DNA of 32,000 nucleotides from Candidatus Methanophagaceae archaeon (GCA_003194425.1 PQXB01000001.1:550444-582443), one strand, 5' to 3'. Positions 841 through 32,000 are shown, counted from the stretch's first letter. Notes: a model not told the origin generated them from the letters alone. A program made the numbers and translations.

Positions 841-886
841 GGAGGAGGAAGAAGAAAGATTGGAGGAGGAAGAAGAAAGATTGGAG
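841..886. repeat. 21-nt tandem duplication ggaggaggaagaagaaagatt x2 plus a partial third copy, in the activase-hemL spacer
   Basis: Read directly: 841-861 and 862-882 are identical. Each unit contains GGAGG. Confidence 0.9.
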
Positions 887-905
887 AAATGGGAAGAAGT
901 AAAAA

Positions 906-2201
906 ATGAAATCCACAAAATTATTTGAACTCGCCTCGAAATATATGCCCGGCGGGGTTAGCAGTCCGGTGCGTGCCTACGCGCCGTACCCTTTCTTTAC
1001 AGCGGGTGCGAAAGGCTCGCGGATTCGCGACGCAGACGGCAGGGAATTCGTTGACTACTGCCTGGCGTACGGACCGCTCGTTCTGGGGCACGCTAACGAG
1101 GAGGTGAAGGAGGCGGTGAAAGAGCAGCTCGAGAAGGGCTGGCTCTACGGCACGCCGCACGAGAGGGAAGTGGCGCTTGCGGAGAGGATTGTAAAGTGCT
1201 GCCCCTCGGTTGAGATGCTCAGGTTTGTCAGCACGGGCAGCGAGGCGACGATGGCTGCACTACGGCTCGCGAGAGGGTTCACGGGGCGAGACAAAATCGT
1301 AAAAATCGAGGGCGGATTTCACGGTGCTCACGACGGCGTCTTAGTTAAAACAGGCTCTGGTGCTGCTACTTTAGGAATTCCAGATTCTGCAGGGGTGCCG
1401 CGGGATTTCGTGAAAAGCACGCTGCAGGTCCCGTTTAACGACGCAGAGGCTCTTAACGAGGTGCTTGAGAAGGAGCAGAAGAAGAACAGTGGAGAAGGAG
1501 AGGTTGCGGCGGTTATAATTGAGCCGGTGCTGGGAAATGTCGGACCGATTCCGCCGGAGGCTGGCTACTTGAGCGAGGTTCGGAAAATAACAGAGGAGCA
1601 GGGGGTTCTGCTTATTTTCGACGAAGTAATTACGGGCTTTCGGTTGGCGTTGGGCGGAGCGCAGGAGTTTTACGGCGTGCGAGCGGACTTGACGACTTTG
1701 GGCAAGATTGTCGGCGGGGGATTTCCAATCGGCGTCTTCGGGGGTAAAAAAGAAATTATGAAACTCGTTGCTCCCTCGGGACCTGTGTACCAGGCAGGGA
1801 CTTTCAGCGGCAACCCGGTTTCTGTTGCTGCGGGTTTAAAGACGGTTGAGATTTTGGAGCGGGAGGGGAGGGGTGAGGGAGTGCTGCGGAGAATAAACGA
1901 GGTTGGCGAGCGGCTGAGAAAGGCGTTAGGCGAGATTTTGACGGATTCCGGCGTTGAAGGCTGCGTCTCGGGTGTAGGCTCGATGTTTAAGATCTTTTTC
2001 AGCGAGGGAGGAAAAAAAGTGAAGAATTATGCAGACGCGTTGAGTTGCGACAAGGAGAAATATTTACGGTTCTTTCATAAAATGCTGGCTTCTGGCGTCT
2101 TCCTGCCGCCCTCGCAGTTTGAGACGAACTTCGTCAGTTCCGCACACACCGAGGAGGATTTAGAGAAGACGGTAGAGGCGTACAAGGAGAATTTGAGATG
2201 A
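906..2201 (+). CDS. hemL: glutamate-1-semialdehyde 2,1-aminomutase
   Basis: 431 aa. N-terminal [13 protein letters not shown], class-III aminotransferase core, and PLP lysine context [12 protein letters not shown]. Confidence 0.92.
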
Positions 2202-3283
2202 GAAATATAAAATTTCACGACAGGGAGAAGGAGATAAAAGAGCTAACAAGCCTGCTTAGCACCGAGCCGACGCTGATTACCTTTGTTTACGGTCCCATCA
2301 ACAGCGGAAAAACTGCTCTGCTTGACTACTTGACCAAGCGTCTGCCGAAGAATTATGTCGTCTTTTACATAAATCTCAGGGGGAAGTTTATCTCGAATTA
2401 CGACGATTTTGTTCGGGCTTTGTTCAAGTTGGAGCGTGAGGAGAAGGAGTACAAAGCGGTCTTAAAAGCGGTCTCCGAGGTTTCGCTAAAGAGTTTGAGA
2501 TTCGCGGGGATTCCGATAACTGAAGGTATTTTAGACTTATTTTTCAAGAAGAAGACTTATGAAGATGTCTTTGAGTTTTTGGAGGATTATTTTAGCGAGA
2601 TAGCGGAGAATAAAGTCCCTGTCTTGATTGTGGACGAGTTGCAGAAGATCGGAGATGTCAAGATTGACAATCATTTAATTTACGAACTTTTCAACTTCTT
2701 TATTCGGCTGACGAAGGAGTTGCACCTGTGCCACGTTTTTGCAATCTCTTCGGATTCGCTTTTTATCGAGCGGGTTTACAGCGAGGCGATGTTGCAGGGG
2801 CGGTGCAGGTTTCTGCTGGTCGACGATTTTGACGAGCAGACGACGAGGGCGTTTCTGGAGGCGCAGGGGCAGGGTTTTACGGAGGCGGAGAAGCAGGAGG
2901 CGTGGGAGTACTGCGGTGGGAAGCCTGTGTGTTTGGTTGAGTTGGCGAATGCGAAGATAAACGGGAAGAGCGTAGAGAGAGAGGCTAAAAAGTTGCTGAA
3001 GATTAGAACGAGCCAAATACTCTCGATATTCGATGAAATAGCGCTTGGAAAGGTTGAATATTCGGAAAAGGCGGTAGCAGAAGAGTTTAAGAACTTTGAG
3101 GCAGAGGAGGTTATAAAATATGAGAGGGAAACTAAAGAGAAATTGTTTCTGGTTGGGAGGAATGTGTTGTTCATTGACCCGACAGAGAGAACAATAAGAC
3201 CGCAGTCGCGGTTGGACTTGCTCGCGATAAGGGTGGTGCTGAAAAACCTTTCTTTACAACCTTTCTTTAAAAAGAAAGTTTGA
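2198..3283 (+). CDS. archaeal P-loop ATPase (Arch_ATPase/DUF234-like)
   Basis: [11 protein letters not shown]...[13 protein letters not shown]alker A and VLIVDELQ Walker B. ATGA start/stop overlap with hemL. Confidence 0.6.
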
Positions 3284-3364
3284 CCAAAGAAAACTTGACA
3301 AAAGAGAAATTATTCTTAAAGAGGAAGGTTATTTAAATAGAATAAAAGGAATAACAATAAGGAG

Positions 3365-3937
3365 ATGCAAATACAGGTAAGAAGAAACGTGAGGGGGTTC
3401 GCGTTTGGTTTAGTGGCAGCGTTGTTAGCGGGCGGAATTCTGGCGGCAGGCGGCGGCGTAGTGCAGGCGGTGCAGGTGGCGGGTAGCGGTGGTGGCGGCA
3501 GCGACGAGGGGCTCGTCGCGGAGTGGCGTTTCGACGAGGGTGCAGGGAGCGTTCTGCACGACAGCTCAGGAAACGGAAACGACGGCGTGATTCACGGCGC
3601 GACTTGGACCGAGGGGAAGTTCGGGAATGCGTTGCGGTTCGATGGTCAGGATGATTTTGTTGAAGTACCTCATAGTAGCTCCTTAAACTTAGGAAAATAT
3701 TTCACAATAACTACGTGGATCAAACCAACGACATTATCAACCGACAACCAATTGATACTTGGTAAAGGAAGTTGGTGTCCTGACGGTGCACCGACATTCA
3801 AGGGATTTTCTTACGCGTTTTTCATAGGTGCAGATTACCAAGGAGCGTATAAGTCTTCAGAAAATGCAAATAAGTTAGCACTCCATATTAACAAAGGTGG
3901 TAATTTTTACCATGAAATTTTGAGAGGGAGGCGATAA
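3365..3937 (+). CDS. secreted LamG/concanavalin-A-like lectin domain protein, probably C-terminally truncated
   Basis: N-terminal hydrophobic signal/anchor, then WRFDEGAGSVLHDSSGNGNDG...ATWTEGKFGNALRFDG..DFVEVP, typical of Laminin_G_3 domains. The ORF stops before the usual end of the domain. Confidence 0.55.
   Translation: MQIQVRRNVRGFAFGLVAALLAGGILAAGGGVVQAVQVAGSGGGGSDEGLVAEWRFDEGAGSVLHDSSGNGNDGVIHGATWTEGKFGNALRFDGQDDFVEVPHSSSLNLGKYFTITTWIKPTTLSTDNQLILGKGSWCPDGAPTFKGFSYAFFIGADYQGAYKSSENANKLALHINKGGNFYHEILRGRR
3926..3931 (+). promoter_or_regulatory. Shine-Dalgarno-like GGGAGG, 8 nt upstream of the TTG start of the RHH gene
   Basis: Sequence gggagg followed by cgataaaa then TTG at 3940. Confidence 0.4.
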
Positions 3938-3939
3938 AA

Positions 3940-4131
3940 TTGGAAATTATACAAGCGAGACTCACTCCAAAACTGCTGGAGGAAGTGGAAAAGATGGTAA
4001 AAGAAGGACTCTATGCAGACAGAGACGAAGCAATTAGAGACACCATCAGAAGGTTAATGCGAGAGATGAGACACTCTAAAGAGGAAGAGAACCTCCTGAA
4101 GGATGCGGAATGGGGGCTTTACGGTAAATGA
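3940..4131 (+). CDS. ribbon-helix-helix (CopG/NikR-N-like) DNA-binding protein
   Basis: 63 aa. IIQARLTPKLLEEVEKMVKEGLYADRDEAIRDTIRRL matches the RHH beta-strand/helix/helix pattern. TTG start with an upstream SD. Confidence 0.55.
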   Translation: MEIIQARLTPKLLEEVEKMVKEGLYADRDEAIRDTIRRLMREMRHSKEEENLLKDAEWGLYGK

Positions 4132-4172: not shown

Positions 4173-5150
4173 ATGAAGCAGCAGAAAAACTCGTTCTTAA
4201 AAATCGGCGGGCTTTTTGCGTTCTTCTGCACCGCGTTCTACCTCGCAGTGCGACTGACGCCCAGCACTTTCGCACCGCTGAACCACTACACTGCGACCGC
4301 GTTGGGGTTCTTCCTACGAGCGTTCGGCTTGCAGCCAACCGTGCAGGGCGACTTGGTGGTGGCTGCAGGGGGCGATTTCGGGGTTGAAATTGTGGACGAG
4401 TGCACGGCGATTTTTATGTTCGTTCTCTTCGCCGCGTTCGTGCTGGCTTACTCGACTTCGGTGCGGAAGAAGGCTGTAGGGCTGCTCTTTGGACTTCCGT
4501 TCTTGTTTGCTGCGAACACGGTGCGGCTTGCGACGGTCTTTTTGGCGGGGCTGTGGTGGCCAGCGGGTTTTGAGTACGTTCACGTCTTCCTTTGGCAGAC
4601 GCTAATCTTAATTCTCGTCTTCGTCGCCTGCTTAGCGTGGCTGCACTTTGTGGTGCTGGTTCCTACACTGACAGACAAGCCGCTGCCCTTCTTTGCAAGG
4701 TTCGTAGCCTTTGCGAGCCTGCTCTTCTTGGTGGGGCTCTCTTTTGACGAGAAATATATTTTGGTGACGGCTCGTGTAACTGAATTTCTGCTGCACTGCG
4801 CCGGCCACTCTGTGCAAATTGCACCCGACCCGAACGCGGCGGTCTACCCAGCGACCTTCAACCTCTTGGCGTTTGCCGCACTTATTCTGGCGACGCAGTC
4901 AAAGACAATCGCGAAAAGGACGAAACTGAAGGCGTTGGCGGTTGGTTCTGCGCTAATCTTTGGCGTTGAGGTCGTTCACGAGTTTTTTATGTTTCTTTCT
5001 CCTCTGCCGTTGGAGGTGCCGCACGCGTTCGAGTTTATGGTTGCAGCGCGGATTGCAAATCAGTACTTCCTCCCGTTCGGGCTCTGGCTCGCCTTTGCTT
5101 ACAGCCTTACACCACCTTCACTCGCTGCAGGAGGTCGTCCGAAGGAGTAA
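4173..5150 (+). CDS. exosortase/archaeosortase-family polytopic membrane protein (paralog distinct from ArtA)
   Basis: Multi-TM protein with the family catalytic pattern: Cys in VDECTAIFMF, an N..R motif (AANTVRLATVF) about 40 aa later, and downstream His residues. Confidence 0.6.
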   Translation: MKQQKNSFLKIGGLFAFFCTAFYLAVRLTPSTFAPLNHYTATALGFFLRAFGLQPTVQGDLVVAAGGDFGVEIVDECTAIFMFVLFAAFVLAYSTSVRKKAVGLLFGLPFLFAANTVRLATVFLAGLWWPAGFEYVHVFLWQTLILILVFVACLAWLHFVVLVPTLTDKPLPFFARFVAFASLLFLVGLSFDEKYILVTARVTEFLLHCAGHSVQIAPDPNAAVYPATFNLLAFAALILATQSKTIAKRTKLKALAVGSALIFGVEVVHEFFMFLSPLPLEVPHAFEFMVAARIANQYFLPFGLWLAFAYSLTPPSLAAGGRPKE

Positions 5151-5660
5151 AGATGAGGGTAACTGAGTCGCCGGACTTGAGTTTCTTCTTCAGCACAAGC
5201 ACCAAAACATCTCCCGTCTCAAAACTCGCCCCCGCCCACTTGGTTTTCCAGTCTGCTCTCTGCCCGGTTGTTCCAATAAAAACACCGTTTAATCCAATGT
5301 CTTCTCCGAGACCGCCAGCAGAGAGGTCAAAAATCTTGCCGTTAATTTTTACTTGCAGTGCGTCCCACCCCTGGTAGTCAGCACTTCTTCCGTCCTTGAA
5401 TGCATTTTTTATCGTTTCTCCGCCGTAATGAATCAGTGTTATATTTTTCCCCCTGCTACACAGCCTTCAAGGATCAACGCTGCACGCGGTGTTGTAGTCA
5501 CCACGCTAATCAGACCGTAAGAAATGGCAGCCACGACCACTGCAATTACTACCGTAACTGCGATCATCAGAATAATGCCGATCACTGGCGAGACCGCTCT
5601 CTCTACCTCACTCTCTCTTCTTCTGCTCTTCGCTCTGCCGTAAGTTTCTTTTAGTTTCAC
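5107..5660 (-). pseudogene. archaeal type IV pilin-like protein (class III signal peptide, DUF1628-like) interrupted by a -1 frameshift
   Basis: The N-terminal ORF (5439-5660) encodes RAVSPVIGIILMIAVTVVIAVVV. The -1 frame from 5451 down to 5107 is open and encodes ...NITLIHYGGETIKNAF...FETGDVLVLVLKKKLKSGDSVTLIFTPSDDLL, the typical C-terminal part of this family. That part has no Met and so is absent from the ORF track. GTGA overlap with the atpF stop. Confidence 0.6.
5445..5451 (-). promoter_or_regulatory. candidate -1 frameshift slippery heptamer G GGA AAA (in the 0 frame of the pilin-like gene)
   Basis: The mRNA reads GCA GGG GGA AAA AUA UAA. This fits the X XXY YYZ pattern, with the 0-frame stop two codons downstream. 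It may equally be a homopolymer indel. Confidence 0.3.
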
Positions 5661-6043
5661 TTAACCGCAACACCAACTGCGCGTTTTATCAGCCATCCGA
5701 TTTCGTCAATCTCCTTCGCCAGCGGTCCTTTCTTGTCCGGCACTTCGATGATAATTGGAATTACGCCCTTCTTCCTCGCATTTATCTCTTTTATCTTTTC
5801 CCTCGCCTTCGTCTCGGCTGCAAGTCGCTCTGTTATGACAATAATTCTGAGACCGCCGTTCCCTTCCCCGCCGTCTCTCGCCAGCCTCTCCAAGACACGT
5901 GCGACCTCTTCTCCACCGTCTGAACCCGCTCCCGCTCCCGCTCCCGCTCCCGCTCCCGCTCCCGCAGAACACTCGAAGACTGCTTTTACGCCTGCGAGCC
6001 TGAACCCAGTGGCAGTTTCAGGGTCTCCGATTACCGCGATCAT
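5657..6043 (-). CDS. atpF: A-type (V-type) ATP synthase subunit F
   Basis: MIAVIGDPETATGFRLAGV... and C-terminal IKRAVGV are typical of AtpF. Contains a (GA)n insert. Confidence 0.8.
   Translation of the reverse strand: MIAVIGDPETATGFRLAGVKAVFECSAGAGAGAGAGAGAGSDGGEEVARVLERLARDGGEGNGGLRIIVITERLAAETKAREKIKEINARKKGVIPIIIEVPDKKGPLAKEIDEIGWLIKRAVGVAVK
5925..5965. repeat. hexanucleotide cccgct x6.8 inside atpF (encodes AGAGAGAGAGAGAG)
   Basis: Read directly; perfect copies. Confidence 0.95.
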
Positions 6044-6699
6044 TTTTCCGCAAAAAGAGACTTAACAATCTCCTCTCGCAAGCCGCTGGAGAGACGAGCC
6101 ATTCGCTGCTCAAAGGTGTTGTTCACTTCTACCTTCCCGCCTCTTCCGCTGACCACCACGCCCCCTTCCGATTTTATCCTTTCTCCTGACACTGACAAAC
6201 GAACTTTCACTCCTCCTCTCGTGCTTCTCTCAACCTCTGCAGAGAGTTCTTTCAGCATTTCAGGGGTCACAAACGACGCGTCCTCCTCGCTGAGTCTTAC
6301 TTCTAATTCGCTGCTACTACCCGCACCCGCGGCGACTACGCTCACTGCAGCGTCTTTTATCAAGCCCGCCAAAATCTCGGAGTAGGACCGCCCTTTGAAG
6401 CCGTTCTTTTTTACTTCCTTTAGTGCCTTCGCTGCTTCTTCTAAGACCTCAGCGATTATTTTTTCTTCGGCGTCCCACCTGACCTTCCTCGCGTTCAGCC
6501 GAGCGGCTCTGACTACGCCCTCCTTCTCCTCGCGTGCCTTCTGCTCTGAAGCGGCGACAAAAGACTTCTTTTGCTCTTCTACCTCTGCCCTCGCTTCTGC
6601 GAGCCTCTTCCTTCTGTTCGCCTCTGCGTCGCTAATTATTTTCTCGCATTCCGCCTCTGCCTCTTCCTTTATCTTTCTAACAATCTCCTCTGCACCCAA
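6040..6699 (-). CDS. atpE: A-type ATP synthase subunit E
   Basis: N-terminal coiled-coil (IKEEAEAECEKIISDAEA...) and C-terminal globular part ending GGVVV...VEVNNTFEQRM...LF. TTG start preceded by GGAGG. Confidence 0.8.
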   Translation of the reverse strand: MGAEEIVRKIKEEAEAECEKIISDAEANRRKRLAEARAEVEEQKKSFVAASEQKAREEKEGVVRAARLNARKVRWDAEEKIIAEVLEEAAKALKEVKKNGFKGRSYSEILAGLIKDAAVSVVAAGAGSSSELEVRLSEEDASFVTPEMLKELSAEVERSTRGGVKVRLSVSGERIKSEGGVVVSGRGGKVEVNNTFEQRMARLSSGLREEIVKSLFAEK

Positions 6700-6712
6700 A
6701 CTACTCTCCCCT

Positions 6713-6786
6713 CCTTCCTTCTACCTTCCTTCTACCTTCCTTCTACCTTCCTTCTACCTTCCTTCTACCTTCCTTCTACCTTCTTT
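6713..6786. repeat. 11-nt tandem repeat ctaccttcctt x about 6.5, in the atpH-atpE spacer
   Basis: ctac recurs at 6721, 6732, 6743, 6754, 6765 and 6776. In mRNA sense the unit is AAGGAAGGUAG. Confidence 0.95.
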
Positions 6787-6794
6787 CCTTCCAC

Positions 6795-7112
6795 TTACCT
6801 CAGCCCCAAAGTTTTTTCTAAGACCACGCTCACTGCGGAGTCGCGATTTGACTCGGCGAGAGATTTCCGTTTCTCTGCTTCCGCCGCTGCATTTTTCATT
6901 ATTTCCGCCTTTGCCTGCTCGCCTTCTTTTCTGTATTTCTCTAAAATCTGAGCAGCCAATTTCTTCTCGTCCTCCAGCGCCTTCTCTTTTACCAGCCGCA
7001 CTTCTGCCTCCGCATCTTCTAATATTTTAGCAGCCTTCACCGTCGCCTCTTCTTTCAGCCGCCTGCCTCTCTCCTCGCCCTCTTTTATTAACTTTAGTGC
7101 TTCTACTGCCAT
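6795..7112 (-). CDS. atpH: A-type ATP synthase subunit H (peripheral stalk, G-like)
   Basis: 105-aa all-helical E/K/A-rich protein (LIKEGEERGRRLKEEA...AEAEKRK) located directly upstream of atpE. Confidence 0.65.
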   Translation of the reverse strand: MAVEALKLIKEGEERGRRLKEEATVKAAKILEDAEAEVRLVKEKALEDEKKLAAQILEKYRKEGEQAKAEIMKNAAAEAEKRKSLAESNRDSAVSVVLEKTLGLR

Positions 7113-7158
7113 TATATTTTTTATACGAATTTTCTTTAAAATAATCTTTTCTTATTTT

Positions 7159-7230
7159 CGGTTCGGTTCGGTTCGGTTCGGTTCGGTTCGTTTCGTTTCG
7201 TTTCGTTTCGATTCGGTTCGTTTCGTTTCG
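7159..7230. repeat. pentanucleotide microsatellite (CGGTT)5(CGTTT)4 CGATT CGGTT (CGTTT)2, in the divergent atpH/grpE intergenic region
   Basis: Read directly; about 14.4 units. Confidence 0.95.
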
Positions 7231-7285: not shown

Positions 7286-7909
7286 ATGAAGAATAATATT
7301 AAAGAGAGGAGAAAAAAGGAGAAAAGAGAGGAGAGGAGTTTGACAAAAGTTCAGAAAAAAGAGCACGGACAAAAGGAAGCAGAGCAAGAAGCAGAGCAAG
7401 AAGCAGAGGTGGAGAGCAGTGAATTAGAGGAGTTGCAGGAGGAATTAGAGGAGAAGAGGAGGTTAGCGGACGATTATTTGTCGCGGCTAAAATATCTGCA
7501 GGCTGAGTTTGAGAACTACAAAAAGATGGTCGCTCGCGAGCGGGAGAGGTACGAGGCGTCTGCGACTGAAGGGCTGGTAAAAAACCTGCTCCCGATTATT
7601 GATTCGCTTGAGAGCGGTCTTGCGACCGCGAATGCAAATGTGAAACGGAGTGAGGGTGAGTCGTCGTTTGTCAAGGGAATTGAGTTGATTTACAAGGATT
7701 TGATGGCGGTGCTCGGTAGAGAAGGGTTGAAGCCGATAAAAGCGGTTGGCGAGCCGTTCGACCCCTACAAGCACGAGGTCGTAACCGCGGTCGTTGACGA
7801 CGGTCTCCCGGAGGACACGGTCGTGGAAGAGCTTGAGAAAGGGTTCTTGCTGGGCTCGAAGGTGATTAGGACCGCGAAGGTGAAGGTCTCTAAAGCAAAA
7901 AAGAAATGA
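7286..7909 (+). CDS. grpE: nucleotide exchange factor GrpE
   Basis: YLRLKYLQAEFENYKKM...LLPIIDSLE...PFDPYKHEVV...GFLLGSKVIRTAKVKV. The N-terminal tail contains a 12-nt x2.75 repeat (7376-7408). Confidence 0.9.
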   Translation: MKNNIKERRKKEKREERSLTKVQKKEHGQKEAEQEAEQEAEVESSELEELQEELEEKRRLADDYLSRLKYLQAEFENYKKMVARERERYEASATEGLVKNLLPIIDSLESGLATANANVKRSEGESSFVKGIELIYKDLMAVLGREGLKPIKAVGEPFDPYKHEVVTAVVDDGLPEDTVVEELEKGFLLGSKVIRTAKVKVSKAKKK

Positions 7910-7922: not shown

Positions 7923-8363
7923 ATGCCAGACAAAGAGACACTCAGGGAATTCCTGCTAAAAGAGGTTGACCTCATTCAAGAAATCGTAAAACGAATGGCT
8001 TTCAACTCGTTTATGATAAAAGGCTGGACTTTAACGCTCGTCGTTGCGTCCTTGCTGTTGCGTGGGACGAAAGGGACAGGGACAGAATCTCAGGTTTGGG
8101 CGGATTTTATCGCGTTTATTCCTCTGCTCGTTTTTTGGTTCTTGGACGCTTACTTCTTGTGGCAGGAACGGATGTACAGGAAGCTGTACGAGTGGGTGGT
8201 GGCGAACAGGCTTGCGACAGACGAGTTTTTGCTTGACCTGAACGCTTACAGGTTTAAAGAAGAGGTTCAGTCGAGGTTCAGGATTATGTTTTCCACGACT
8301 TTGGGTTGGTTCTACGGTGCGATCGCGGTTTTGATAGTAATTTATGCTTTAAGATTATTTTAA
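7923..8363 (+). CDS. hypothetical 3-TM membrane protein inserted between grpE and dnaK
   Basis: 146-aa ORF with an amphipathic N-terminal helix followed by three hydrophobic segments. I do not recognise a family with confidence. Confidence 0.5.
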   Translation: MPDKETLREFLLKEVDLIQEIVKRMAFNSFMIKGWTLTLVVASLLLRGTKGTGTESQVWADFIAFIPLLVFWFLDAYFLWQERMYRKLYEWVVANRLATDEFLLDLNAYRFKEEVQSRFRIMFSTTLGWFYGAIAVLIVIYALRLF

Positions 8364-8410
8364 CCACAAAAGAAAGATAATAACTGAAAAATAAACAAAA
8401 TAAGCAAAAA

Positions 8411-8416
8411 GGAGGT
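8411..8416 (+). promoter_or_regulatory. Shine-Dalgarno GGAGGT upstream of dnaK
   Basis: ggaggt lies 11 nt upstream of the ATG at 8428. Confidence 0.5.
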
Positions 8417-8427
8417 CAAAAGAAAAA

Positions 8428-10329
8428 ATGGCGAAGACAATAGGAATTGATGTAGGGACGAGCAATTCGGCTGCGGCGGCGATGGTCGGCGGGAAGCCAA
8501 CGATAATTCCGAGCTCAGAGGGAACGAGTCTCGGGGGCAAGGCGTTCCCCTCAGTCGTGGCGTTCACGAAGGACGGGCAGATGCTGGTCGGCGAACCCGC
8601 GAAGCGGCAGGCGGTCTCTAACCCCGAAGGCACGATTTTGGCGATCAAGCGTAAAATGGGCACCGACTACAAAGTAAAGGTTCGTGGCAAGGAATACTCG
8701 CCACAGCAAATAACCGCGTTCATTCTACAAAAAATCAAACGCGACGCAGAGGCGTTCCTGGGCGACAAGGTTGACAAGGCGGTCTTGACCGTGCCTGCGT
8801 ACTTCAACGACAACCAGCGGACGGCGACGAAGGACGCGGGTGCGATCGCGGGCTTAGAGGTTGTCCGAATAATCAACGAGCCGACAGCCGCGGCGCTCGC
8901 TTACGGAATTGACAAGACCGAGAAGGAGCAGAAGATTCTGGTCTTCGACTTCGGCGGCGGCACGCTCGATGTAACAATTATGGAGTTCAGCGAGGGCGTC
9001 TTCGAGGTCCTTTCCACGAGCGGCGACACACAACTCGGCGGCACCGACATGGACAAAGCAGTCCTGGATTATGTGGCTGAAGAGTTCAAGGCAGAGACGG
9101 GAATCGACGTGCGGAAAGACAAAATGGCGTTGCAACGGCTCCGAGAGGCGTCGGAGAAGGCGAAGATTGAACTCTCGAGCGTCCTTGAGACCGACCTGAA
9201 CCTGCCGTTCATCACCGCCGACGCCTCGGGTCCGAAGCACCTCGTAACGAAACTCACGCGTGCGAAGTTGGAGGAACTCGTGCGTCCAATCGTGGAGCGG
9301 TGCAAAACTTCAATCGACCGCGCACTGGAGGACGCGAAAATCGCTTCTCGCAGCGAAATTTCCAAAATCATCTTCGTCGGCGGTCCGACGCGAATGCCTT
9401 TTGTCCAGAAGTTCGTCGAGGACTACATCGGCGTCTCGGGTGAGCGGGGCGTTGACCCGATGGAATGCGTTGCGATGGGCGCTGCGATTCAGGCAGGCGT
9501 GCTGACCGGCGAGGTGAAGGACGTGCTGCTCTTGGATGTTACTCCGCTCTCGCTCGGCATCGAGACCCTCGGCGGCGTCACCACCAAACTAATCGAGCGG
9601 AACACCACGATTCCAACGAAGAAGAGCCAAATATTCTCAACCGCCGCGGACAACCAAACGAGCGTCGAGATAAATGTCCTGCAGGGCGAGCGAGAATTTG
9701 CGAGGGACAACACTTCGCTGGGGCGGTTCCACCTGATGAACATTCCGCCAGCGCCGCGGGGCGTCCCACAAATCGAGGTCACCTTCGACATCGACGCCAA
9801 CGGCATCTTAAATGTCACCGCCGAGGACAAGGGCACGGGAAAGCAGCAGGCGATCACAATCACCGCCTCGACCAAACTCTCGCAGAGCGAGATTGACCGA
9901 ATGGTTGAGGAGGCGAAGCGGTTCGAGGAGGAGGACAAGAGGCGACGCGAAATTGTGGAGACCAAGAACCAGGCAGAGAGCCTCATTTACACCACCGAGA
10001 AGGCACTCGCGGATTTGGGCGACAAGGTAACGAGCGAGGAGAAGTCGCGAATTAACGCAATTTCCGAGCGGCTGAAGGAGACGGCAAAGGGCGAGGATAT
10101 TCAGAAGATTCGGGCTGAAATGGAGGAACTGACGCGGGCGTTCCACGAAATTTCTACGCGGGCTTACCAACAAGCCAGCGCGGAAGCCGGCGCAGGAGGA
10201 GCAGGAGCTGGTGCAGGCGGAGCTGGTGCAGGCGGAGCTGGTGCAGGCGGAGCGGGAGCACAGCAGCAACAGCAACGAGAAGGCACAACCGAGGACGCGG
10301 AATACAAAGTGGTGGACGAGGAGGAGTAG
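8428..10329 (+). CDS. dnaK: chaperone DnaK (Hsp70)
   Basis: 633 aa with [18 protein letters not shown] and the full NBD and SBD. The Gly/Ala/Gln-rich C-terminal tail is built from a 15-nt repeat. Confidence 0.97.
10206..10254. repeat. 15-nt tandem repeat agctggtgcaggcgg x3.3 in the dnaK C-terminal tail
   Basis: Read directly; three perfect copies. Confidence 0.95.
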
Positions 10330-10357
10330 GAAAGAAAGCGAAAAATAATGTCAAATA

Positions 10358-11422
10358 ATGCCAAAAAAAGATTACTACGAGACGCTCGGCGTTAGCAGGG
10401 ACGCCACGGAAAAAGACATTAAGCGAGCCTACCGAAGACTGGCAAAGCAGTACCACCCCGACACCTACAAAGGCGACAAGAAAGAGGCAGAAGAGAAGTT
10501 CAAGGAGATTTCAGAGGCTTACGAGGTGCTGGCTGACCGGGAGAAACGAGCGAAGTACGACCAGTTTGGGCAGAGGGTGGCGGAAGAGAATTTTGGACCC
10601 GAGGGCTTCGACTGGAGCCACTTCACGCACTACCGAGATGTAGAGGACATTTTCGGGAGTGCAATTTTTGAGTCGTTCTTCAGACCCGCGGGCAGTCCTG
10701 CCGGCAGCCCTGGCTTTGCGGGTAGCGGCGGGATTTTTGACACGCTCTTTGGGGGCGGGGAGCGACTACAAAGAACCGTTCGCGGTGCTGACGTTCGTTT
10801 AAGGCTGGACATTAGTCTTGAAGAGGCGGCTCGGGGGGCGGAGAAGACGATTGAGGTCCCGATGCAGCGGAGAGGCAAGGTCAAGCGAACGAAAATCCAA
10901 CTCAAAATTAAGAAGGGTGTTGATTCTGGCTACGAGATAAAAATTCCGAGGGCTGGGAGACCGCCACCTCCGACACCTCCAGAGTCTCGAATTGGCGGGG
11001 GCAGGAGAAGAGGTGTGGGCGGAGTGCCGGGCGACTTGTACGTGGTCTTGAATGTTTTACCGCACCCGGTCTTTGAACGGCGTGGAGACGACCTTTTTAT
11101 GCAGACGCGGATAAGTTTCGCAGACGCGGCGTTGGGCGGTGAGGTCACTGTTAGGGGATTAGACGGAAAACAGGTGAGGGTAAAAATCCCGCCGGAAACG
11201 CAGACAAACACCAAATTCCGCTTGCGCGGGCTGGGAATGCCGAGACTCAGTGGCAGTGGCAGTGGCAGTGGTAGTGCTGCTCGTGGCAGTGCTGCTCGTG
11301 GGAGCAGTCGTGGGGATCTTTATGTAGAAGTGGTTGTGGAGACGCCGAGAAATCTCACGACGCAGCAGAAGGAACTCTTGCGGAAGGCGTTCGCTGGTGC
11401 TAAACCTAATTCGCAGAAATAA
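10358..11422 (+). CDS. dnaJ: DnaJ-family co-chaperone lacking the Cys-rich zinc-finger domain
   Basis: J-domain with HPD, a G/F-like region, and C-terminal domains (GDLYVVLNV...FERRGDDL...GGEVTV...[12 protein letters not shown]). The protein has no cysteine at all; the CxxCxGxG x4 segment is replaced by [13 protein letters not shown]. Confidence 0.85.
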
Positions 11423-24140: not shown

Positions 24141-24442
24141 CACTTTTCAACAACGCTCACAAGCTCCCTCACCGAGCCAACCCTCTCCTTCACCTCCTCA
24201 ATCTCCAGCCTCGCCTCGTGAAACCCCTCAACGTGCAGGAACCAGGCTTGAGCCTCCTTGCTTTTGGAGAGCTCAAATCTGAACGCCAATTCCTTAACCG
24301 CCTCCTCTGCGGCTTTGTACAACTTCTCGCTCGCCTGCACCGCGTCCTCCCTCGCAACGCACTTCCCGGCTTCAGCAAGCTTCCCGGCTTCAGCAAGCTT
24401 CCTTGACAGGAGTTCGAGCCTCCTCTCGTCTTTTGCCCTCAT
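24140..24442 (-). CDS. small helical protein, PaREP1-like
   Basis: AVQASEKLYKAAEEAVKELA...FHEARLE resembles the PaREP1 core. The ATG at 24442 has an upstream GAGGGG. Contains an 18-nt x2 duplication (24362-24397, KLAEAG KLAEAG). Confidence 0.45.
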   Translation of the reverse strand: MRAKDERRLELLSRKLAEAGKLAEAGKCVAREDAVQASEKLYKAAEEAVKELAFRFELSKSKEAQAWFLHVEGFHEARLEIEEVKERVGSVRELVSVVEK

Positions 24443-25647: not shown

Positions 25648-25832
25648 TGCGGCAACCGGGGCTCGAACCCGGGTTACAGGCTGTTTCCCTCCCTTTTTTC
25701 TCTTTCCTTTTTTGATCAACCTTTTCCTATCTTTCCTTTTTTGATCAACCTTTTCCTATCTTTCCTTTTTTGATCAACCTTTTCCTAAAAGGTTGTTGGG
25801 AAGCCCGTGTCCTTCCGCTAGACTATTGCCGC
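25648..25832 (-). tRNA. tRNA-Gly(CCC) with a 114-nt intron at the canonical 37/38 position
   Basis: Hand-folded.
- Acceptor stem: GCGGCAA/TTGCCGC, 7 perfect bp.
- D arm: GTCT-AGCGGAA-GGAC.
- Anticodon stem: CGGGC/GCCTG.
- Anticodon loop: TTCCCAA.
- T arm: CCGGG-TTCGAGC-CCCGG.
- Discriminator: A. CCA is not encoded.
- Exons: 25797-25832 and 25648-25682. Confidence 0.85.
25683..25796 (-). other. tRNA intron composed largely of a 29-nt tandem repeat (AAAAGGUUGAUCAAAAAAGGAAAGAUAGG x about 2.9; repeats at 25700-25783)
   Basis: GATC recurs at 25714, 25743 and 25772 (period 29). Intron 3' GGAA pairs with loop UUCC, giving a 4-bp central helix flanked by 3-nt bulges (BHB-like). Confidence 0.75.
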
Positions 25833-26132: not shown

Positions 26133-26216
26133 CTAAACCTCTACCCTAAACCTCTACCCTAAACCTCTAAACTAAACCTCCACAAACTAAACCTCCAAAC
26201 TAAACCTCCAAAACCC
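26133..26216. repeat. degenerate tandem array with core ctaaacctc x6 (13-nt unit ctaaacctctacc x2, then ctaaacctcc variants), in the csl4-rpoL spacer
   Basis: Read directly. In mRNA sense the units are (G/A)GAGGUUUAG. The csl4 terminus GUGGUUUAG resembles the unit. Confidence 0.9.
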
Positions 26217-26847: not shown

Positions 26848-27117
26848 TTAAATTCCATCCTTAAATCTCAAATCAGCGCCATCTCTTTTCGCACTCGCAG
26901 GGAAAGTCCCCGCACTTAATTCCACAAGCACTTGAAAATCCGTAAGCGATTTCCCCGTATTCTCCTCTACCTCCTTGTAGGAGCTCCTGTCGTAGTAGCT
27001 CCAGTCTCCACTGCCTGCGTTTGATAACGCCGACACCTTTCCTATCTTTCCTATCCCTCCCGCCAGCAACACCAGCAGGGTTCCTAATGCGATTTTTTTA
27101 TTCTGCATTTCTATCAT
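26848..27117 (-). pseudogene. N-terminal remnant of a secreted DUF2341-like surface protein
   Basis: Signal peptide followed by W.YY...DFQVLVEL...GADLRFKDG, which resembles the start of a DUF2341 domain. The ORF stops right there (89 aa). Confidence 0.4.
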
Positions 27118-27194
27118 TTTTCTTTTTATTCTACTTAATTCTTTTTATTCTACTTAAATATTTAATCAAACTTTTCCTAAGAATTTGTTGTTCA

Positions 27195-28499: not shown

Positions 28500-29360
28500 T
28501 CACCATATTTTTCTTCGCTTCCGCCTGACGAATCTGTTCCGAAGCAGCAACGCAAAGAGGCTGCTCAGCAAAAACATCGCAATTAGCACGAGCGAGGCGC
28601 CGAAGGCACGAGAAGAAGCTGCGGAAGTGTGCCCTTGCGTCGCGAGCATAAAAATATAAACCGGCAACGACCCAACAGGGTCAGAGAGTGACCGCGGCAG
28701 AAACGATTCCAAACCCGAACCCGCGGTTAAAAGAACAACAGCCGTCTCTCCTACCGCCTTTCCCATTCCAAGCAAGACCCCAGTAATTATGCCAGGGGCA
28801 GCGTTCCTCAGCACCACGCCACGAATCGTCTGCCACTTGGAAACGCCTAAAGCAAGCGACGCCTCCCGGTAAGAGTAGGGAACCGTTTTAATCGCCTCTT
28901 CGCTCGCCCTAACTGTCCAAGGCAGAATCATAAAACCGAGAGCCAAACCGCCAGAGAGCAGGGAAACGCCGAACCCCAAAAAATAGACGAGGAAAACGAG
29001 CCCGAACAAGCCGATCACTACCGACGGAATCCCTGCCAAGCACTCCACAAAGAACCGCACACTTCGTGTCACCAAATTATCGGCTGCATATTCTGCGAGA
29101 TAAATCGCAGTCGCAAGACCCAGAGGAACCGCGAAAAGCAGACAGACCGCAACCAAAAAAAATGTCCCCACAACCTGCGGAAATATTCCGCCGTGCTCGA
29201 ACCTGTAAGGAGACTCGAGCAGGAACGCTGGATTTATCGCTCCTGCACCGTTGAAAAATATGTAGCCAACTAAAACGAGCAGCACCGCAACCGAGACGAG
29301 TGCCGCCGCGCACAAGCCCAGTTTTACGACCTCTTCACGCACTCTAACACACACACTCAC
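28500..29360 (-). CDS. pstA: phosphate ABC transporter permease PstA
   Basis: 6-TM BPD-type permease with ASLALG..KWQT in the EAA loop; second permease of the operon. The exact GTG start is uncertain because the 5' end lies in a repeat. Confidence 0.88.
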   Translation of the reverse strand: MSVCVRVREEVVKLGLCAAALVSVAVLLVLVGYIFFNGAGAINPAFLLESPYRFEHGGIFPQVVGTFFLVAVCLLFAVPLGLATAIYLAEYAADNLVTRSVRFFVECLAGIPSVVIGLFGLVFLVYFLGFGVSLLSGGLALGFMILPWTVRASEEAIKTVPYSYREASLALGVSKWQTIRGVVLRNAAPGIITGVLLGMGKAVGETAVVLLTAGSGLESFLPRSLSDPVGSLPVYIFMLATQGHTSAASSRAFGASLVLIAMFLLSSLFALLLRNRFVRRKRRKIW

Positions 29361-29449
29361 TCACCTCTCTCTCACTCACCTCTCTCTCACTTCTCACTCA
29401 CACTCACTCACTCTCACACACACTCTCACACTCTCACATTCTCTCATTT
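29356..29449. repeat. 15-nt tandem unit ctcactcacctctct x2 followed by degenerate CT/CA-rich repeats, in the pstC-pstA spacer
   Basis: 29356-29370 and 29371-29385 are identical. In mRNA sense the unit is AGAGAGGUGAGUGAG and includes GAGGUGA. Confidence 0.9.
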
Positions 29450-30316
29450 TCAATCTCTCCCCCATCCTCCTTTTCCTCTTCTTATCACGGCAGTGGTTAC
29501 CGCGTTGAGAACCGCGACCACCGCGAACAGTACCACGCCGAGAGCGAACAACGCGTGCTGGTGCATCGAACCCCAGACCGCGTAACTTATCTCAATCACG
29601 ATCGTGGAAGTGAGCACGCGGACTGGCTCCAACGCAGAGTGAGGGATCCAAGGAATGTTCGGGTTCCCGACGACCATCAAAACCGCCATCGTCTCTCCTA
29701 CCGCGTTTCCCATTCCCAGAACCAGCGACGCCAAAATCCCAGACCTTGCGTTCGGCAAAATCACCTTTCGGACAGTCTGCAGTTGCGTGGCACCGAGAGC
29801 GAGCGACGCCTCTTTGTAGCCATTTGGAACCGCTCTGATAGAATCTTCTGAGATGCTGACGACGTGCGGCAAGGTCATAATCGCGAGAATTACCCAGCCC
29901 GCGAGCACACACTCGCCCCAACCCCCGAACGCGTCCCTCACGAAGACGACGAGCACCGTCAGCCCGAAGAGCCCGAGCACGACCGACGGAAACCCGACCA
30001 GCATCTCCACAGAGGGCTTAACGAGGTTGCGAAGCCAGTCTGGCGAGAATTCCGCCAAATAAATCGCTGCAGGGATGCCTACGGCTGCTGCGAGCACCAA
30101 CGCACCGATTCCCACCACGAAAGTGCTCACAACAATCGGGAAAATGCCGAACTGGTCGTGAGAAGGGTGCCAGGTCATTCCAAAGAAAAACTCCCGCCAG
30201 CCCAGCGTTAACGCAGGAAAGCCCTCTTTCAGCAGGAATGCGAGGATAAAAAAAACGATAAAAATGGACGAGAGGGCAGAGACGAACAACGCCCACTCTA
30301 CTATTTTTTCTCCCAC
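29450..30316 (-). CDS. pstC: phosphate ABC transporter permease PstC
   Basis: 6-TM permease with ASLALGATQLQT in the EAA loop; first permease after pstS. GTG start overlaps the upstream gene by 16 nt. Confidence 0.88.
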   Translation of the reverse strand: MGEKIVEWALFVSALSSIFIVFFILAFLLKEGFPALTLGWREFFFGMTWHPSHDQFGIFPIVVSTFVVGIGALVLAAAVGIPAAIYLAEFSPDWLRNLVKPSVEMLVGFPSVVLGLFGLTVLVVFVRDAFGGWGECVLAGWVILAIMTLPHVVSISEDSIRAVPNGYKEASLALGATQLQTVRKVILPNARSGILASLVLGMGNAVGETMAVLMVVGNPNIPWIPHSALEPVRVLTSTIVIEISYAVWGSMHQHALFALGVVLFAVVAVLNAVTTAVIRRGKGGWGRD

Positions 30317-31119
30317 ACTAACTCCTGCCCCCCTTTTGAATACATTCTAAATATTTTCATCCCCCATTCTTCTTTTCCTGCTTCTCTTCCTGCTTCTTTT
30401 CCTGCTTCTTTTCCTGCTTCTCTTCCTGCTTCTCTTCTTCCCTCGTCCCCCTCGCCCGCCTCGCAGATTTCAATCAGGTTGAACGACGGCGGAATGTTCC
30501 ACTTCACCTTGCTACTGCACGCCGTCCCCGCGTTCACTACTGCCGTCCCGTTCAAGTTCCAGACCCACGGCACGTGTTTGTGTCCACAGAGCACGAGGTC
30601 GGTCCCGCACCGAAGAAGCAGTTCAAGAACATCTCCTGCGTCTGTCAGAATGTTCCGCTCTCGCCCTGTCTTTGGAACCGAAATTAAATGGTGGTGGAGA
30701 GCGACGACCTTAAAACTGTCCGTCCAGTCAGTCGTAAGGCAGCGCTCAATCCACTCATATTTCTCTCTCCCCACGTGCCCCTCGTCCAGGTCAGGCTGTG
30801 TAGAATCCACGCCGACAACTGTCACTCCCTTGTGCTGCAGAATCTTCGACCTCGCTCCGAAAATCTCCTCAAAGCAAAGGTCGCCCACGTTCCTCGCGTC
30901 GTGATTTCCCGGAACCACCACCTTCACCTCACACTCGATTCTCTCGATGTAACTCTTCGCTCGCACAAACTCTGAATAACTGCCCTCGTTGGTTAAATCG
31001 CCTGTAACTACCACAATCTCTGGCTTTACCTCGTTTATCCTTTTTATCACTTTCTCTGCCAACTCTGGCAGGAAATGCGATTTCCCTGTGTGAATATCCG
31101 AAATGTGCACGATTTTCAT
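30301..31119 (-). CDS. calcineurin-like metallophosphoesterase
   Basis: Motifs SDIH, TGDL, GNHD, HHH and CGHKH in canonical order. The C-terminal EAG(R/K) repeat tail comes from a 12-nt x5 array. Confidence 0.8.
   Translation of the reverse strand: MKIVHISDIHTGKSHFLPELAEKVIKRINEVKPEIVVVTGDLTNEGSYSEFVRAKSYIERIECEVKVVVPGNHDARNVGDLCFEEIFGARSKILQHKGVTVVGVDSTQPDLDEGHVGREKYEWIERCLTTDWTDSFKVVALHHHLISVPKTGRERNILTDAGDVLELLLRCGTDLVLCGHKHVPWVWNLNGTAVVNAGTACSSKVKWNIPPSFNLIEICEAGEGDEGRREAGREAGKEAGKEAGREAGKEEWGMKIFRMYSKGGQELVWEKK
30373..30432. repeat. 12-nt tandem repeat t(t/c)ttcctgcttc x5 inside the phosphoesterase gene
   Basis: cctg recurs at 30377, 30389, 30401, 30413 and 30425. Confidence 0.95.
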
Positions 31120-31143
31120 TTCCTTTTCCTCTTTTCTTCCTCT

Positions 31144-32000
31144 TCACTTCCTCCTTTTCTCCCTCCCTCTGCGCACCGCGCAGGCTACTCCCGCTACCGC
31201 CAACAAACCTGCAACTCCAAATACCGCGTCAAATCCAGGTTGCGTTGGTGTCGTCGTTGGTGTTTCCGTTGCAGTTGGTCTCGGCGTCGTCTTGGGAGTC
31301 AGTTCAGGTGTTAGCGTCTCCTCAAGCGTCTCCTCAAGCGTCTCCTCAAGCGTCTCCTCAACAGGCAGTTTTATGTAGCCCATTTCGTCCACCACTTCCT
31401 GCCCCTCCTCGCTCAGCACGAAGTCAATGAACGCCGCCTCAAGTTCGCTCGGCGCCCCGTTCGTCACGAGGTACAAGTTCCGCGAGATTGGGTAAGCCCC
31501 AGAGAGCACGTTCTCCTCGGTCGCTGCCACGCCGTCTATTTTGACCGCTTTTACGGACGCGTCAAGGTAGCCGAGAGAGAGGTAGCCAATGCTCCTCTCG
31601 TCGCTACTGACCGTTGCTCTCACTTCGCCGTTCGAGGATTTTACCGCCGCGTTGGCAGCGATTTCCTTCCCAAACGGTTTCAGTACCGCCGTCTCAAAGC
31701 AGTCCCTCGTTCCAGACCCTTCTTCGCGCGTTACTACCCGAATCGCCTCGTCTCGTCCGCCCAGTTCCTTCCAGTTCGTTATTTCGCCTGCGAAGATTTT
31801 CGCTGCCTCTTCCAACTCCAGCCCTTGCCCTTGTCCCTGCCCCTGTTCGCTCACTGGATTGCTCGGATGCAGAACAATCGCCACGCTGTCCTTCCCTACG
31901 ACCACTGGCTTCAAGTTCGGAAACGCCTCCAGCTCTTTCACTTTTACATCCCGCGAGGCTGCGCCGATGTCAATTTCGCCTGCGCCCACTGCTTTTACGC
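31144..32000 (-). CDS. pstS: phosphate-binding protein PstS with PGF-CTERM sorting signal (5' end beyond the window)
   Basis: PBP-type core (IDIGAASRD, GSGTRD). A Thr/Pro-rich linker is followed by PGFDAVFGVAGLLAVAGVACAVRRGREKRRK. The frame stays open upstream of 31989 to the window edge. Confidence 0.85.
   Translation of the reverse strand, partial: VKAVGAGEIDIGAASRDVKVKELEAFPNLKPVVVGKDSVAIVLHPSNPVSEQGQGQGQGLELEEAAKIFAGEITNWKELGGRDEAIRVVTREEGSGTRDCFETAVLKPFGKEIAANAAVKSSNGEVRATVSSDERSIGYLSLGYLDASVKAVKIDGVAATEENVLSGAYPISRNLYLVTNGAPSELEAAFIDFVLSEEGQEVVDEMGYIKLPVEETLEETLEETLEETLTPELTPKTTPRPTATETPTTTPTQPGFDAVFGVAGLLAVAGVACAVRRGREKRRK
31314..31361. repeat. 12-nt tandem repeat gcgtctcctcaa x4 inside pstS (encodes ETLE repeats)
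   Basis: Read directly; four perfect copies. Confidence 0.95.

Follow-up and report, generated by a model that had tools for sequence, protein, structure and literature searches.

Dense, frame-preserving and strain-variable tandem repeats in a chromosomal region of a Methanophagales (ANME-1) archaeon

The DNA analysed here is a stretch of 32,000 nucleotides from a Candidatus Methanophagaceae archaeon (GCA_003194425.1 PQXB01000001.1:550444-582443), referred to below as the window. It is chromosomal DNA of an archaeon of the order Methanophagales (anaerobic methanotrophic archaea, ANME-1) and not a Borg-like element. It carries about one short perfect tandem repeat (TR) array per kilobase, both between genes and inside housekeeping genes. 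TR biology of this kind has previously been described mainly for the Borg elements of Methanoperedens; here it occurs on a cellular chromosome, and full-text searches combining tandem repeats with ANME-1 or Methanospirare found no description of the phenomenon. The arrays probably reflect a very high, lineage-specific rate of local tandem duplication and slippage in sequence that is purine-rich on the sense strand, with selection removing the frameshifts.

Tandem Repeats Finder (TRF) returned 95 rows for the window. A strict finder, accepting only perfect repeats (0 mismatches, unit 4–40 nt, at least 2 copies and at least 18 nt), identified 30 non-redundant arrays with a total length of 1105 nt, or 3.45% of the window. 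Array lengths ranged from 18 to 106 nt. Shuffled sequences contained on average 0.40 (Markov-3) or 0.64 (Markov-5) arrays, and triplet shuffles 0.72 (300-nt blocks) or 2.5 (60-nt blocks), with a maximum of 6 in a single shuffle. Because the shuffled controls stay at 0.40–2.5, the excess is not due to base, codon or local composition. All arrays listed in a preliminary description of the window were recovered by TRF and the strict finder at the same coordinates or a few bases off. The dnaK array was placed at 10204-10253 instead of 10206-10254, the traB array at 23564-23600 instead of about 23575-23610, and the phosphoesterase array was found to extend over 30369-30437 (x5.8 at 94% identity) and not 30373-30432 (x5). 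That list was also incomplete, lacking the arrays at 15435-15521, 12940-13024, 11521-11551, 13316-13341, 17020-17047, 31821-31842 and 29354-29459.

The strict finder was then applied to every fetched locus. The window (32 kb) contained 9.4 perfect TRs per 10 kb and the ten sister-strain loci described below (160 kb) contained 10.2, against 0.74 in 21 loci of other Methanophagales-type genomes (325 kb) and 1.14 in 203 other archaeal loci (2.1 Mb). A density of roughly one array per 1–1.5 kb among core genes had been regarded as highly unusual at the outset, and the value of about 1 per 10 kb in other archaea bears this out. Past both ends of the window, the flanks of the sister contigs carried 3–11 TRs per 10 kb. 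The genome was sampled in one region of about 41 kb (window plus sister-contig flanks) and in about ten strains; the region as a whole is of high density, and the extension of this density to the whole genome is an extrapolation. High GC-content or a thermophile-type composition was ruled out as the cause, with no arrays in the high-GC relatives L016 (57% GC) and L017 (Alkanophaga, 54% GC). Unrelated archaeal loci that are also TR-rich, with 5–10 perfect TRs per 10 kb, belonged to Methanolapillus ohkumae (L048, NZ_CP131061.1), Methanimicrococcus sp. (L056) and M. hongohii (L044), and the metagenome loci L141, L196 and L148 fell in the same range. Equivalence with the Methanolapillus/Methanimicrococcus loci was rejected, as the arrays there are mostly AT-rich and lie outside long open reading frames (ORFs). 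Literature linking tandem repeats with Methanimicrococcus was not found.

The arrays follow the reading frame inside genes. Unit length was a multiple of three in 18 of 19 genic perfect arrays compared with 3 of 11 intergenic ones (Fisher's test, p = 2 × 10−4), and the genic excess over an expectation of 1/3 was highly significant (binomial test, p = 3 × 10−8). The sole genic array with another unit length (10 nt x2.2) lies in an unannotated 111-aa ORF and was invariant between strains. Host ORFs also remained open in the sister strains, so that two observations of the preliminary description, frame-preserving units within genes and frame-agnostic units between them, were both upheld. By arithmetic, array density was about 38 per 10 kb in the 9% of the window that is non-coding and about 6.5 per 10 kb in genes; this roughly 6-fold contrast fits a frame-blind process filtered by purifying selection. 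The operon-internal spacers atpH-atpE, csl4-rpoL and pstC-pstA, and likewise the region upstream of hemL, consist almost entirely of arrays, whose units repeat GGAGG-like motifs on the sense strand.

Copy-number turnover was assessed in ten collinear sister contigs from independent assemblies (NCBI, ENA and JGI), which are 98–99% identical to the window and together cover all of it. One of them, the 7.4-kb JGI contig L143, was among the matches listed in a scan of metagenomes with a degenerate DNA motif, and the other nine were obtained by exact-protein look-ups with PstB and AtpH (NCBI metagenome-assembled genomes (MAGs), ENA assemblies and a JGI metagenome). Array lengths were measured between conserved flanks, and indels and single-nucleotide polymorphisms (SNPs) were taken from pairwise BLAST. 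L143 is collinear with window positions 7983-15329 and differs by 28 SNPs (0.38%) and six indels. All six indels were multiples of three and five lay in TRF-listed arrays; the sixth removed 3 nt from a short GGA run in rfcL, which is missing from the TRF output.

In the first comparison (L143 and L205–L210), 18 of 26 comparable arrays varied in length, against 7 of 275 control segments of 50 nt. The addition of L211–L213 brought seven further variable arrays; newly variable with these contigs were those of atpF, grpE, the atpH-atpE spacer, the 5-nt array, the third rfcL array, the Ser run and both cysteate synthase arrays. Arrays expand and contract by whole units between strains. Genic differences, from −36 to +36 nt, were all multiples of three and mostly whole units; intergenic differences were mostly whole units too, without being tied to three: arrays shifted by ±11, 22 or 44 nt where the unit is 11 nt, by 20 or 30 nt where it is 5 nt and by 29 or 58 nt where it is 29 nt. 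Six pairwise comparisons yielded 116 indels and 502 SNPs, counts that are non-independent owing to shared ancestry. TRF arrays, covering 8.9% of the sequence, held 90 of the 116 indels, by arithmetic an enrichment of about 35-fold, and these 90 array indels equal about one fifth of all SNPs in the strain pairs compared. The ORFs stayed open with shifted lengths: RfcL measured 560, 570 or 581 aa, DnaK 632, 633 or 643 aa and TraB 473, 476 or 483 aa, and the genes called on sister contigs encoded a DnaJ of 352 aa, a cysteate synthase of 480 aa and ThiL proteins of 374–382 aa.

Exact-protein look-ups with PstB, AtpH, RpoL and ATPase_2, which are invariant proteins, found matches, and those with RfcL, PurM and HemL found none. 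The latter three likely differ between strains, RfcL by repeat number, hence the failure of exact matching. Repeat-number variation, at least in RfcL, may help proteins of this lineage to escape identity-based indexing.

The ortholog comparison was built on RfcL homologs, Protein Data Bank (PDB) homologs and two chance orthologs. RfcL of the window has 560 aa compared with 454–527 aa in 19 aligned orthologs, and carries six insertions at or beside repeat sites: WAEAWAEAW, EGGRGG, (SASH)n, GGGGDGGEGGRGG, (ERG)n and an expanded acidic tail. The 19 orthologs, of which the closest are 63–70% identical, have none of the six. In an AlphaFold model of RfcL generated from the ortholog alignment, most inserts fell in segments with a predicted local distance difference test (pLDDT) score below 50 and WAEAWAEAW appeared as a helix extension; since the model is poor across the whole C-terminal half (mean pLDDT 63.6), low scores of the inserts are little informative on disorder. 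Cysteate synthase contains two inserts that do not align with PDB 9k3c, located exactly at (DGGG)n (about 28 aa) and (GGRVER)n. ThiL has about 40 additional residues, compared with PDB 5cc8, in the linker from AIRS to AIRS_C. This linker is a long-standing hot spot, because it is also long, with unrelated sequence, in another ANME-1 archaeon (L081) and the sister strains have yet another sequence there. The repeat-driven novelty proposed in the preliminary description is thus supported for RfcL, cysteate synthase and ThiL by the absence of the inserts from orthologs or structures and by their varying copy numbers, with the qualification that the ThiL linker is already variable elsewhere in ANME-1. 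The three refuting conditions named in that description (a density no higher than in related archaea, assembly artefacts, and inserts already carried by distant orthologs) were each examined at least in part, and none of them overturned it.

Several arrays occupy tolerant positions. In PstS, (EETL)n is part of the stalk that links the binding domain to the PGF-CTERM anchor. The aRF1 array falls within the last 10 residues, and the DnaK array within the last 45, at 25 residues from the C-terminus. Array-encoded residues comprised G (23%), E (19%), A (13%), R (10%) and S (10%), and F, P, N, C, I and L were nearly absent. The inserts are low-complexity, G/E/A/R/S-rich segments within conserved enzymes; at the outset they had been described as G/A/S/E/K/R-rich and disorder-type, and disorder of these peptides is plausible.

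On the sense strand, 78% of array bases were purines (A 34%, G 44%) compared with 58% elsewhere. The purine content was above background in 30 of 33 orientable arrays, intergenic ones within operons included. Units were locus-specific, the only near-identical pair being those of traB (23564-23600) and the phosphoesterase (30369-30437); these lie 7 kb apart, share 11 of 12 nt (CTTCTCGTCCTG and CTTCTCTTCCTG) and both encode (E/R)AG(R/K). Most arrays end in a partial unit of 1–15 nt, which would fit duplications initiated between short direct repeats.

The best relatives of PurM, in a search among species-representative genomes, were Methanophagales (ANME-1) MAGs with 66–73% identity. The homolog search with RfcL gave Methanophagales proteins at no more than 63% identity and did not return the sister-strain versions. 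PstB and RpoL of the window are identical to proteins labelled 'Candidatus Methanospirareceae', 'Methanophagales archaeon' and 'ANME-1 cluster archaeon ex4572_4', on contigs reaching 1.19 Mb. Methanospirareceae, a family in the order Methanophagales, is described as a thermophilic deep-branching ANME-1 clade (PMC9894754). The GC-content of the window is 52.9% and its coding fraction 91%. Pfam searches with window proteins identified ATP-synt_F, TraB, PBP_like_2 with PGF-CTERM (PstS), PaREP1, DHNA and AAA_18; precomputed Pfam annotations of the sister contigs included GrpE, HSP70, DnaJ, CDP-OH_P_transf, PALP, AIRS, Metallophos and eRF1, as well as tRNA-synt_1c, SRP19, RNA_pol_L_2, ECR1_N, ABC_tran and BPD_transp_1. 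Sequence matches in the PDB were thiamine-monophosphate kinase (thiL; 5cc8) and cysteate synthase (9k3c). Gene order around purM and rfcL is poorly kept in other ANME-1 and not conserved outside the species. Rfam and tRNA scans of the intergenic arrays revealed no known RNA.

In the mechanism that we propose, a duplication would arise by slipped-strand or template-switch mispairing, often between microhomologies of a few bases, and a two-copy array could gain or lose whole units when its strands realign out of register in replication or repair. The process would be blind to frame. Purifying selection would purge coding arrays with units other than multiples of three, together with in-frame ones at structurally intolerant positions. 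The genic survivors would be in-frame, G/E/A/R/S-rich and probably disordered peptides in tails, linkers and surface loops of housekeeping proteins; between genes all unit lengths would survive, leaving some operon spacers almost wholly made of arrays. The purine richness of the sense strand suggests that homopurine/homopyrimidine sequence, prone to polymerase stalling, triplex or R-loop formation, could be the preferred substrate. Candidate causes of the raised rate would be a polymerase or repair defect, or physiology. A further proposition, possible but unlikely in our estimate, is that the TR state is a discrete heritable property of the lineage, caused by loss or alteration of a replication or repair function, or by acquisition of a factor, and that the same process acts in Borgs. 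If true, Borg repeat genesis would not be peculiar to elements but a cellular mutator-like mode that operates on a whole archaeal chromosome and continuously creates new disordered segments in essential proteins, and its mechanism would become tractable by comparison of TR-rich and TR-poor ANME-1 genomes.

Several points weigh against the duplication-slippage interpretation. Slippage is a proposed mechanism, and high density across the genome is extrapolated from about 41 kb of one region. The indel counts of strain pairs are not independent events, some length differences between assemblies could be assembly errors, and a sequencing adapter and gaps, detailed below, lie at arrays. The poorly modelled C-terminal half of RfcL lends little to the case for disorder. 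The (SASH)n array of rfcL is one of three pyrimidine-rich arrays, and purine richness in genes could partly stem from the tolerated peptides (E, K, G and R codons), although intergenic arrays are purine-rich too. Finally, the unit shared by traB and the phosphoesterase could reflect compositional convergence or non-local copying.

It is extremely improbable that the arrays or their copy-number differences are artefacts of short-read metagenome assembly. Assemblies do fail at some of them: the ENA assembly L206 has a Nextera adapter (CTGTCTCTTATACACATCT...) inside the ThiL array (window ~21094-21104), with the gene call split in two, and the NCBI MAGs L205 and L209 contain runs of N totalling 600 and 800 nt, at least some of which lie at arrays such as those of the pstC-pstA spacer and the pstS linker. 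Nevertheless, the same arrays recur at the same loci in ten independent assemblies with differing pipelines and samples; several share allele lengths, and in all strains where a clean measurement was possible ThiL, for example, gave 64 nt and the phosphoesterase 57 nt. All arrays are shorter than about 110 nt, most can in our judgement be spanned by single short reads, and artefacts would not follow multiples of three only inside genes. An origin of the window as a Borg-like or other extrachromosomal element with captured housekeeping genes is very improbable as well. Both strands carry genes, arranged in ordinary operons (grpE-dnaK-dnaJ, pstSCAB, atpH-E-F), core cellular genes (aRF1, RfcL, PurM, GlxRS, RpoL, Csl4 and SRP19) have Methanophagales orthologs as best matches, a sister contig extends to 363 kb, the 1.19-Mb contig carries an identical PstB, and no element hallmark genes were found in the window. 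Its GC-content of 53% also differs from about 35% reported for a Borg-type element (10.64898/2026.05.22.727314). The poor synteny with other ANME-1 around purM and rfcL would fit such an element, as would the pervasive perfect TRs and some host-like housekeeping genes that Borgs carry (PMC9879509; 10.64898/2026.05.22.727314).

The inserts might instead be old low-complexity regions from a distant ancestor, an explanation that we consider highly improbable. C-terminal tails of DnaK/Hsp70 proteins are G/A-rich and unstructured in many organisms, which suits the position of the DnaK array, and the ThiL linker is also long, with other sequence, in L081. However, the units are perfect in nucleotide sequence, none of the 19 orthologs has the RfcL inserts, and homologs of solved structure lack the arrays of cysteate synthase and ThiL. 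Strains of about 99% identity also differ in copy number, which rules out an ancient origin for RfcL, cysteate synthase and most arrays. Quite unlikely, though less so, is a mainly adaptive role, in which selection keeps the arrays variable for 'contingency' or evolvability by way of tunable disordered regions and tunable GGAGG-like spacers. The former would adjust protein interactions and the latter translation or coupling in operons, and the high density would stem from selection for variability and not only from a higher mutation rate. The arrays in atpH-atpE, csl4-rpoL, pstC-pstA and upstream of hemL do repeat Shine-Dalgarno-like motifs and vary between strains, others lie in linkers or tails where length could matter (the PstS stalk, the ThiL linker), and regulatory and intrinsically disordered region functions were proposed for the analogous repeats of Borgs (PMC9879509). 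Against this, arrays hit unrelated cytoplasmic enzymes (PurM, cysteate synthase, aRF1, RfcL, DHNA) without preference for surface or defence genes; genic arrays cannot switch genes, as all but one have units in multiples of three and the exception is invariant; and the contrast between coding and non-coding density is what frame-blind mutation with purifying selection predicts. An adaptive reading may hold for some loci, as tunable spacers or tunable linkers.

Table 1. Tandem-repeat arrays of the window and their length differences in sister strains. Changes are given relative to the window; L-numbers denote sister-strain contigs.
Location	Coordinates	Strand	Array	Strain differences
Intergenic, 20 nt upstream of hemL ATG	841-886	+	21 nt x2.2 (GGAGGAGGAAGAAGAAAGATT); Shine-Dalgarno-like GGAGG repeated	Length unchanged in L211
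atpF (A-type ATPase subunit F)	5925-5965	-	6 nt x6.8, (GA)n; Pfam ATP-synt_F	-6 nt in L211 and L213
atpH-atpE spacer	6713-6787	-	11 nt x6.8; most of 95-nt spacer; sense (GTAGAAGGAAG)n	+22 nt L212, -44 nt L213; whole units, not multiples of 3
Divergent atpH/grpE intergenic region	7157-7230	.	5 nt x14.8 (TTCGG/TTCGT)	-30 nt L212, -20 nt L213
grpE N-terminal region	7376-7408	+	12 nt x2.75, EAEQEAEQEAE	+36 nt (3 units) L211
dnaK C-terminal tail	10204-10260	+	15 nt x3.3, (GAGAG)n	+30 nt (2 units) L143 and L211; -3 nt L212
dnaJ near C-terminus	11248-11301	+	6 nt x4.8 overlapping 15 nt x2.3	-12 nt (2 units) L143; -6 nt L211
rfcL insert 1	11521-11551	+	12 nt x2.6, WAEAWAEAW	Invariant in L143 and L211
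rfcL insert 3	12099-12179	+	12 nt x4.75 perfect + degenerate copies, (SASH)n; pyrimidine-rich; pLDDT <50	+12 nt (1 unit) L143; +24 nt L211
rfcL insert	12554-12596	+	9 nt x4.8 (3.4 perfect), (ERG)n	+18 nt L211
rfcL C-terminal array	12940-13024	+	Imperfect, E/K-rich, periods 9, 12, 24; TRF	+18 nt L143; +24 nt L211
Adenylate-kinase-like (AAA_18) gene	13316-13341	+	Imperfect 10-12-nt array; TRF	+12 nt L143
CDP-alcohol phosphatidyltransferase	13899-13928	+	Ser-codon run (AGCAGT)n, S10	-6 nt L211
Cysteate synthase	15160-15214	-	18 nt x3, (GGRVER)n	-36 nt (2 units) L211
Cysteate synthase	15435-15521	-	12 nt x6.4 (90% identity), (DGGG)n	+15 nt L211
purM	16545-16563	+	6 nt x3.2, LSLSLS	
Dihydroneopterin aldolase (DHNA) N-terminus	17020-17047	+	6 nt x4.7, (DR)n	
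thiL interdomain linker	21078-21168	+	24 nt x2.5 perfect inside 12-nt-period array, KKEMKKERKKEMKKERKKE	-27 nt and changed sequence in five sister strains
srp19/PHP-domain gene spacer	22341-22360	-	9 nt x2.3	+17 nt in 5/6 strains
traB	23564-23600	-	12 nt x3.1 (88% identity), (GREA)n	+12 nt in three strains, +36 nt L206
traB N-terminal region	23963-23987	-	9/12-nt unit, GGDGGD	-3 nt L206
PaREP1-family ORF	24362-24402	-	18 nt x2.3, (KLAEAG)n	-18 nt L209
aRF1 last codons	24459-24482	-	12 nt x2.0, RYGTRYGT-K-stop; overlaps PaREP1 ORF 5' end	Same length in six strains
rpoL-aRF1 spacer	25701-25787	-	29 nt x3.0 perfect	2 copies in five strains, 1 copy L206
csl4-rpoL spacer	26133-26214	-	13 nt x6; fills 87-nt spacer; sense (GGAGGTTTAGTTT)n	0 to -41 nt
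Intergenic	27037-27055	-	9 nt x2.1; window-strain-specific duplication	1 copy in 6/6 sister strains, 2 in window (one-to-two-copy birth)
Intergenic	27120-27157	-	19 nt x2.0	1 copy L210; adjacent 10-nt gains L206, L208
pstC-pstA spacer	29354-29459	-	Imperfect 8-20-nt units; sense (GTGAGAGTGT...)n, spacer filled	+29, -40, -32 nt between strains; N gaps in L205, L209
Metallophosphoesterase C-terminal region	30369-30437	-	12 nt x5.8 (94% identity), (EAGR/K)n	-12 nt in 6/6 sister strains
pstS linker, PBP domain to PGF-CTERM anchor	31313-31361	-	12 nt x4.1, (EETL)n	+36 nt L206; -12 nt in three strains
pstS N-terminal region	31821-31842	-	6 nt x3.7, (GQ)n	+12 nt L205 and L208

Several other features of the region were observed. 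Between grpE/orf146 and dnaK, contig L211 has an additional gene of some 500 nt (8203-9148, corresponding to window position ~8370) with a ThsB_TIR (Thoeris-type) domain that the window lacks, a small presence/absence polymorphism of a defence gene between strains. An ATPase_2/AAA gene at 2198-3283 (+) coincides with a dip in GC-content to about 0.46 at 2001-4000. Its protein is 100% identical to the copy on the 363-kb sister contig, and the next-best relatives (60–70%) belong mostly to ANME-2c 'Methanogaster' and other Methanosarcinales, not to ANME-1; a paralog search returned only the identical protein and ANME-2c relatives. These relatives and the low GC-content suggest that the gene was horizontally acquired. 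The A-type ATPase genes located together at 5657-7112 (-) encode only the H, E and F subunits (neighbouring region 4173-5150), and what follows them on the sister contig is not the remainder of the ATPase operon but a pilin-like gene and a gene for a membrane protein of the exosortase/archaeosortase family. In the rpoL-aRF1 spacer, CCCGGGTTCGAGCCCCGGTTGCCGCA (25648-25673, -) resembles part of a tRNA, the T-arm with the 3' acceptor half; neither ARAGORN nor Rfam found a tRNA in the window. Possible identities are an att-site remnant left by integration and a tRNA that has decayed or been split.

Variable-number tandem repeats (VNTRs) or minisatellites, as used in multiple-locus VNTR analysis (MLVA) typing, are short arrays whose copy number varies between strains by slippage, and typical genomes carry tens of them. 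The arrays described here resemble them in being short and polymorphic in copy number (18 of 26 vary in the first comparison), but occur about once per kilobase, many of them in conserved enzymes, an order of magnitude above other archaeal loci. Contingency loci of Neisseria, Haemophilus and Campylobacter contain genic units of 1, 2, 4, 5 or 7 nt, not multiples of three, which switch the frame of surface or restriction-modification genes. Hypermutable copy number by slippage and the presence of some repeats in promoters or spacers are shared with these loci; in contrast, all variable genic arrays here have units in multiples of three and produce no off-switching, and their hosts are housekeeping genes. 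CRISPR arrays, in which unique spacers of similar length separate direct repeats, were not matched, as units are head-to-tail without spacers and Rfam gave no match in the window.

The closest known counterpart is provided by Borgs of Methanoperedens, which carry pervasive perfect TRs and amino acid tandem repeats (Schoelmerich et al. 2023, PLoS Biol, PMC9879509). The analogy drawn in the preliminary description proved apt: perfect head-to-tail units are dense in and between genes (30 arrays in 32 kb here), genic units are multiples of three with open ORFs and most intergenic units are not, and unit number is variable, here between near-identical strains in independent assemblies. Units are also unique to their locus, except for the traB/phosphoesterase pair (11/12), arrays are flanked by or end in partial units, and the coding strand is enriched in purine (A), with low-complexity peptides of putatively disorder-type composition. 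Counting only perfect arrays with 3 or more units and a length of 50 nt or more, as was done for Borgs, leaves 4 arrays in the window, with 0.83% of its bases; the corresponding share is 0.62% in Borgs and at most 0.01% in Methanoperedens chromosomes (PMC9879509). The carrier differs, being a cellular chromosome of the order Methanophagales/ANME-1 with genes on both strands and a far higher GC-content of about 53% vs about 35%. As carriers, Borgs are giant linear, low-GC molecules with long inverted repeats at their termini and a single coding strand in each replichore; the window does not match them in strands, GC-content or gene content. Essential cytoplasmic genes are hosts here; peptides are rich in G/E/A/R/S and not in P/T/E/K; the base bias is towards G+A and not A alone; and most arrays are short (2–7 copies).

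This comparison places a Borg-like syndrome within essential genes of another methane-oxidising lineage, where its density equals or exceeds that in Borgs and arrays turn over between strains that diverge by about 1% in SNPs. Pervasive, perfect TRs that respect the frame were described as a signature of Borgs and as 'virtually absent' from the chromosomes of Borg hosts, and whether element or host machinery makes the repeats was left open there (PMC9879509). The arrays break short-read assemblies and split gene calls, and the orthologs escape both exact-match and 90%-identity look-ups. They offer a natural experiment on the birth and tolerance of low-complexity, probably disordered segments in conserved proteins. 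One TR-rich lineage beside many TR-poor sister lineages provides a comparative handle on the mechanism.

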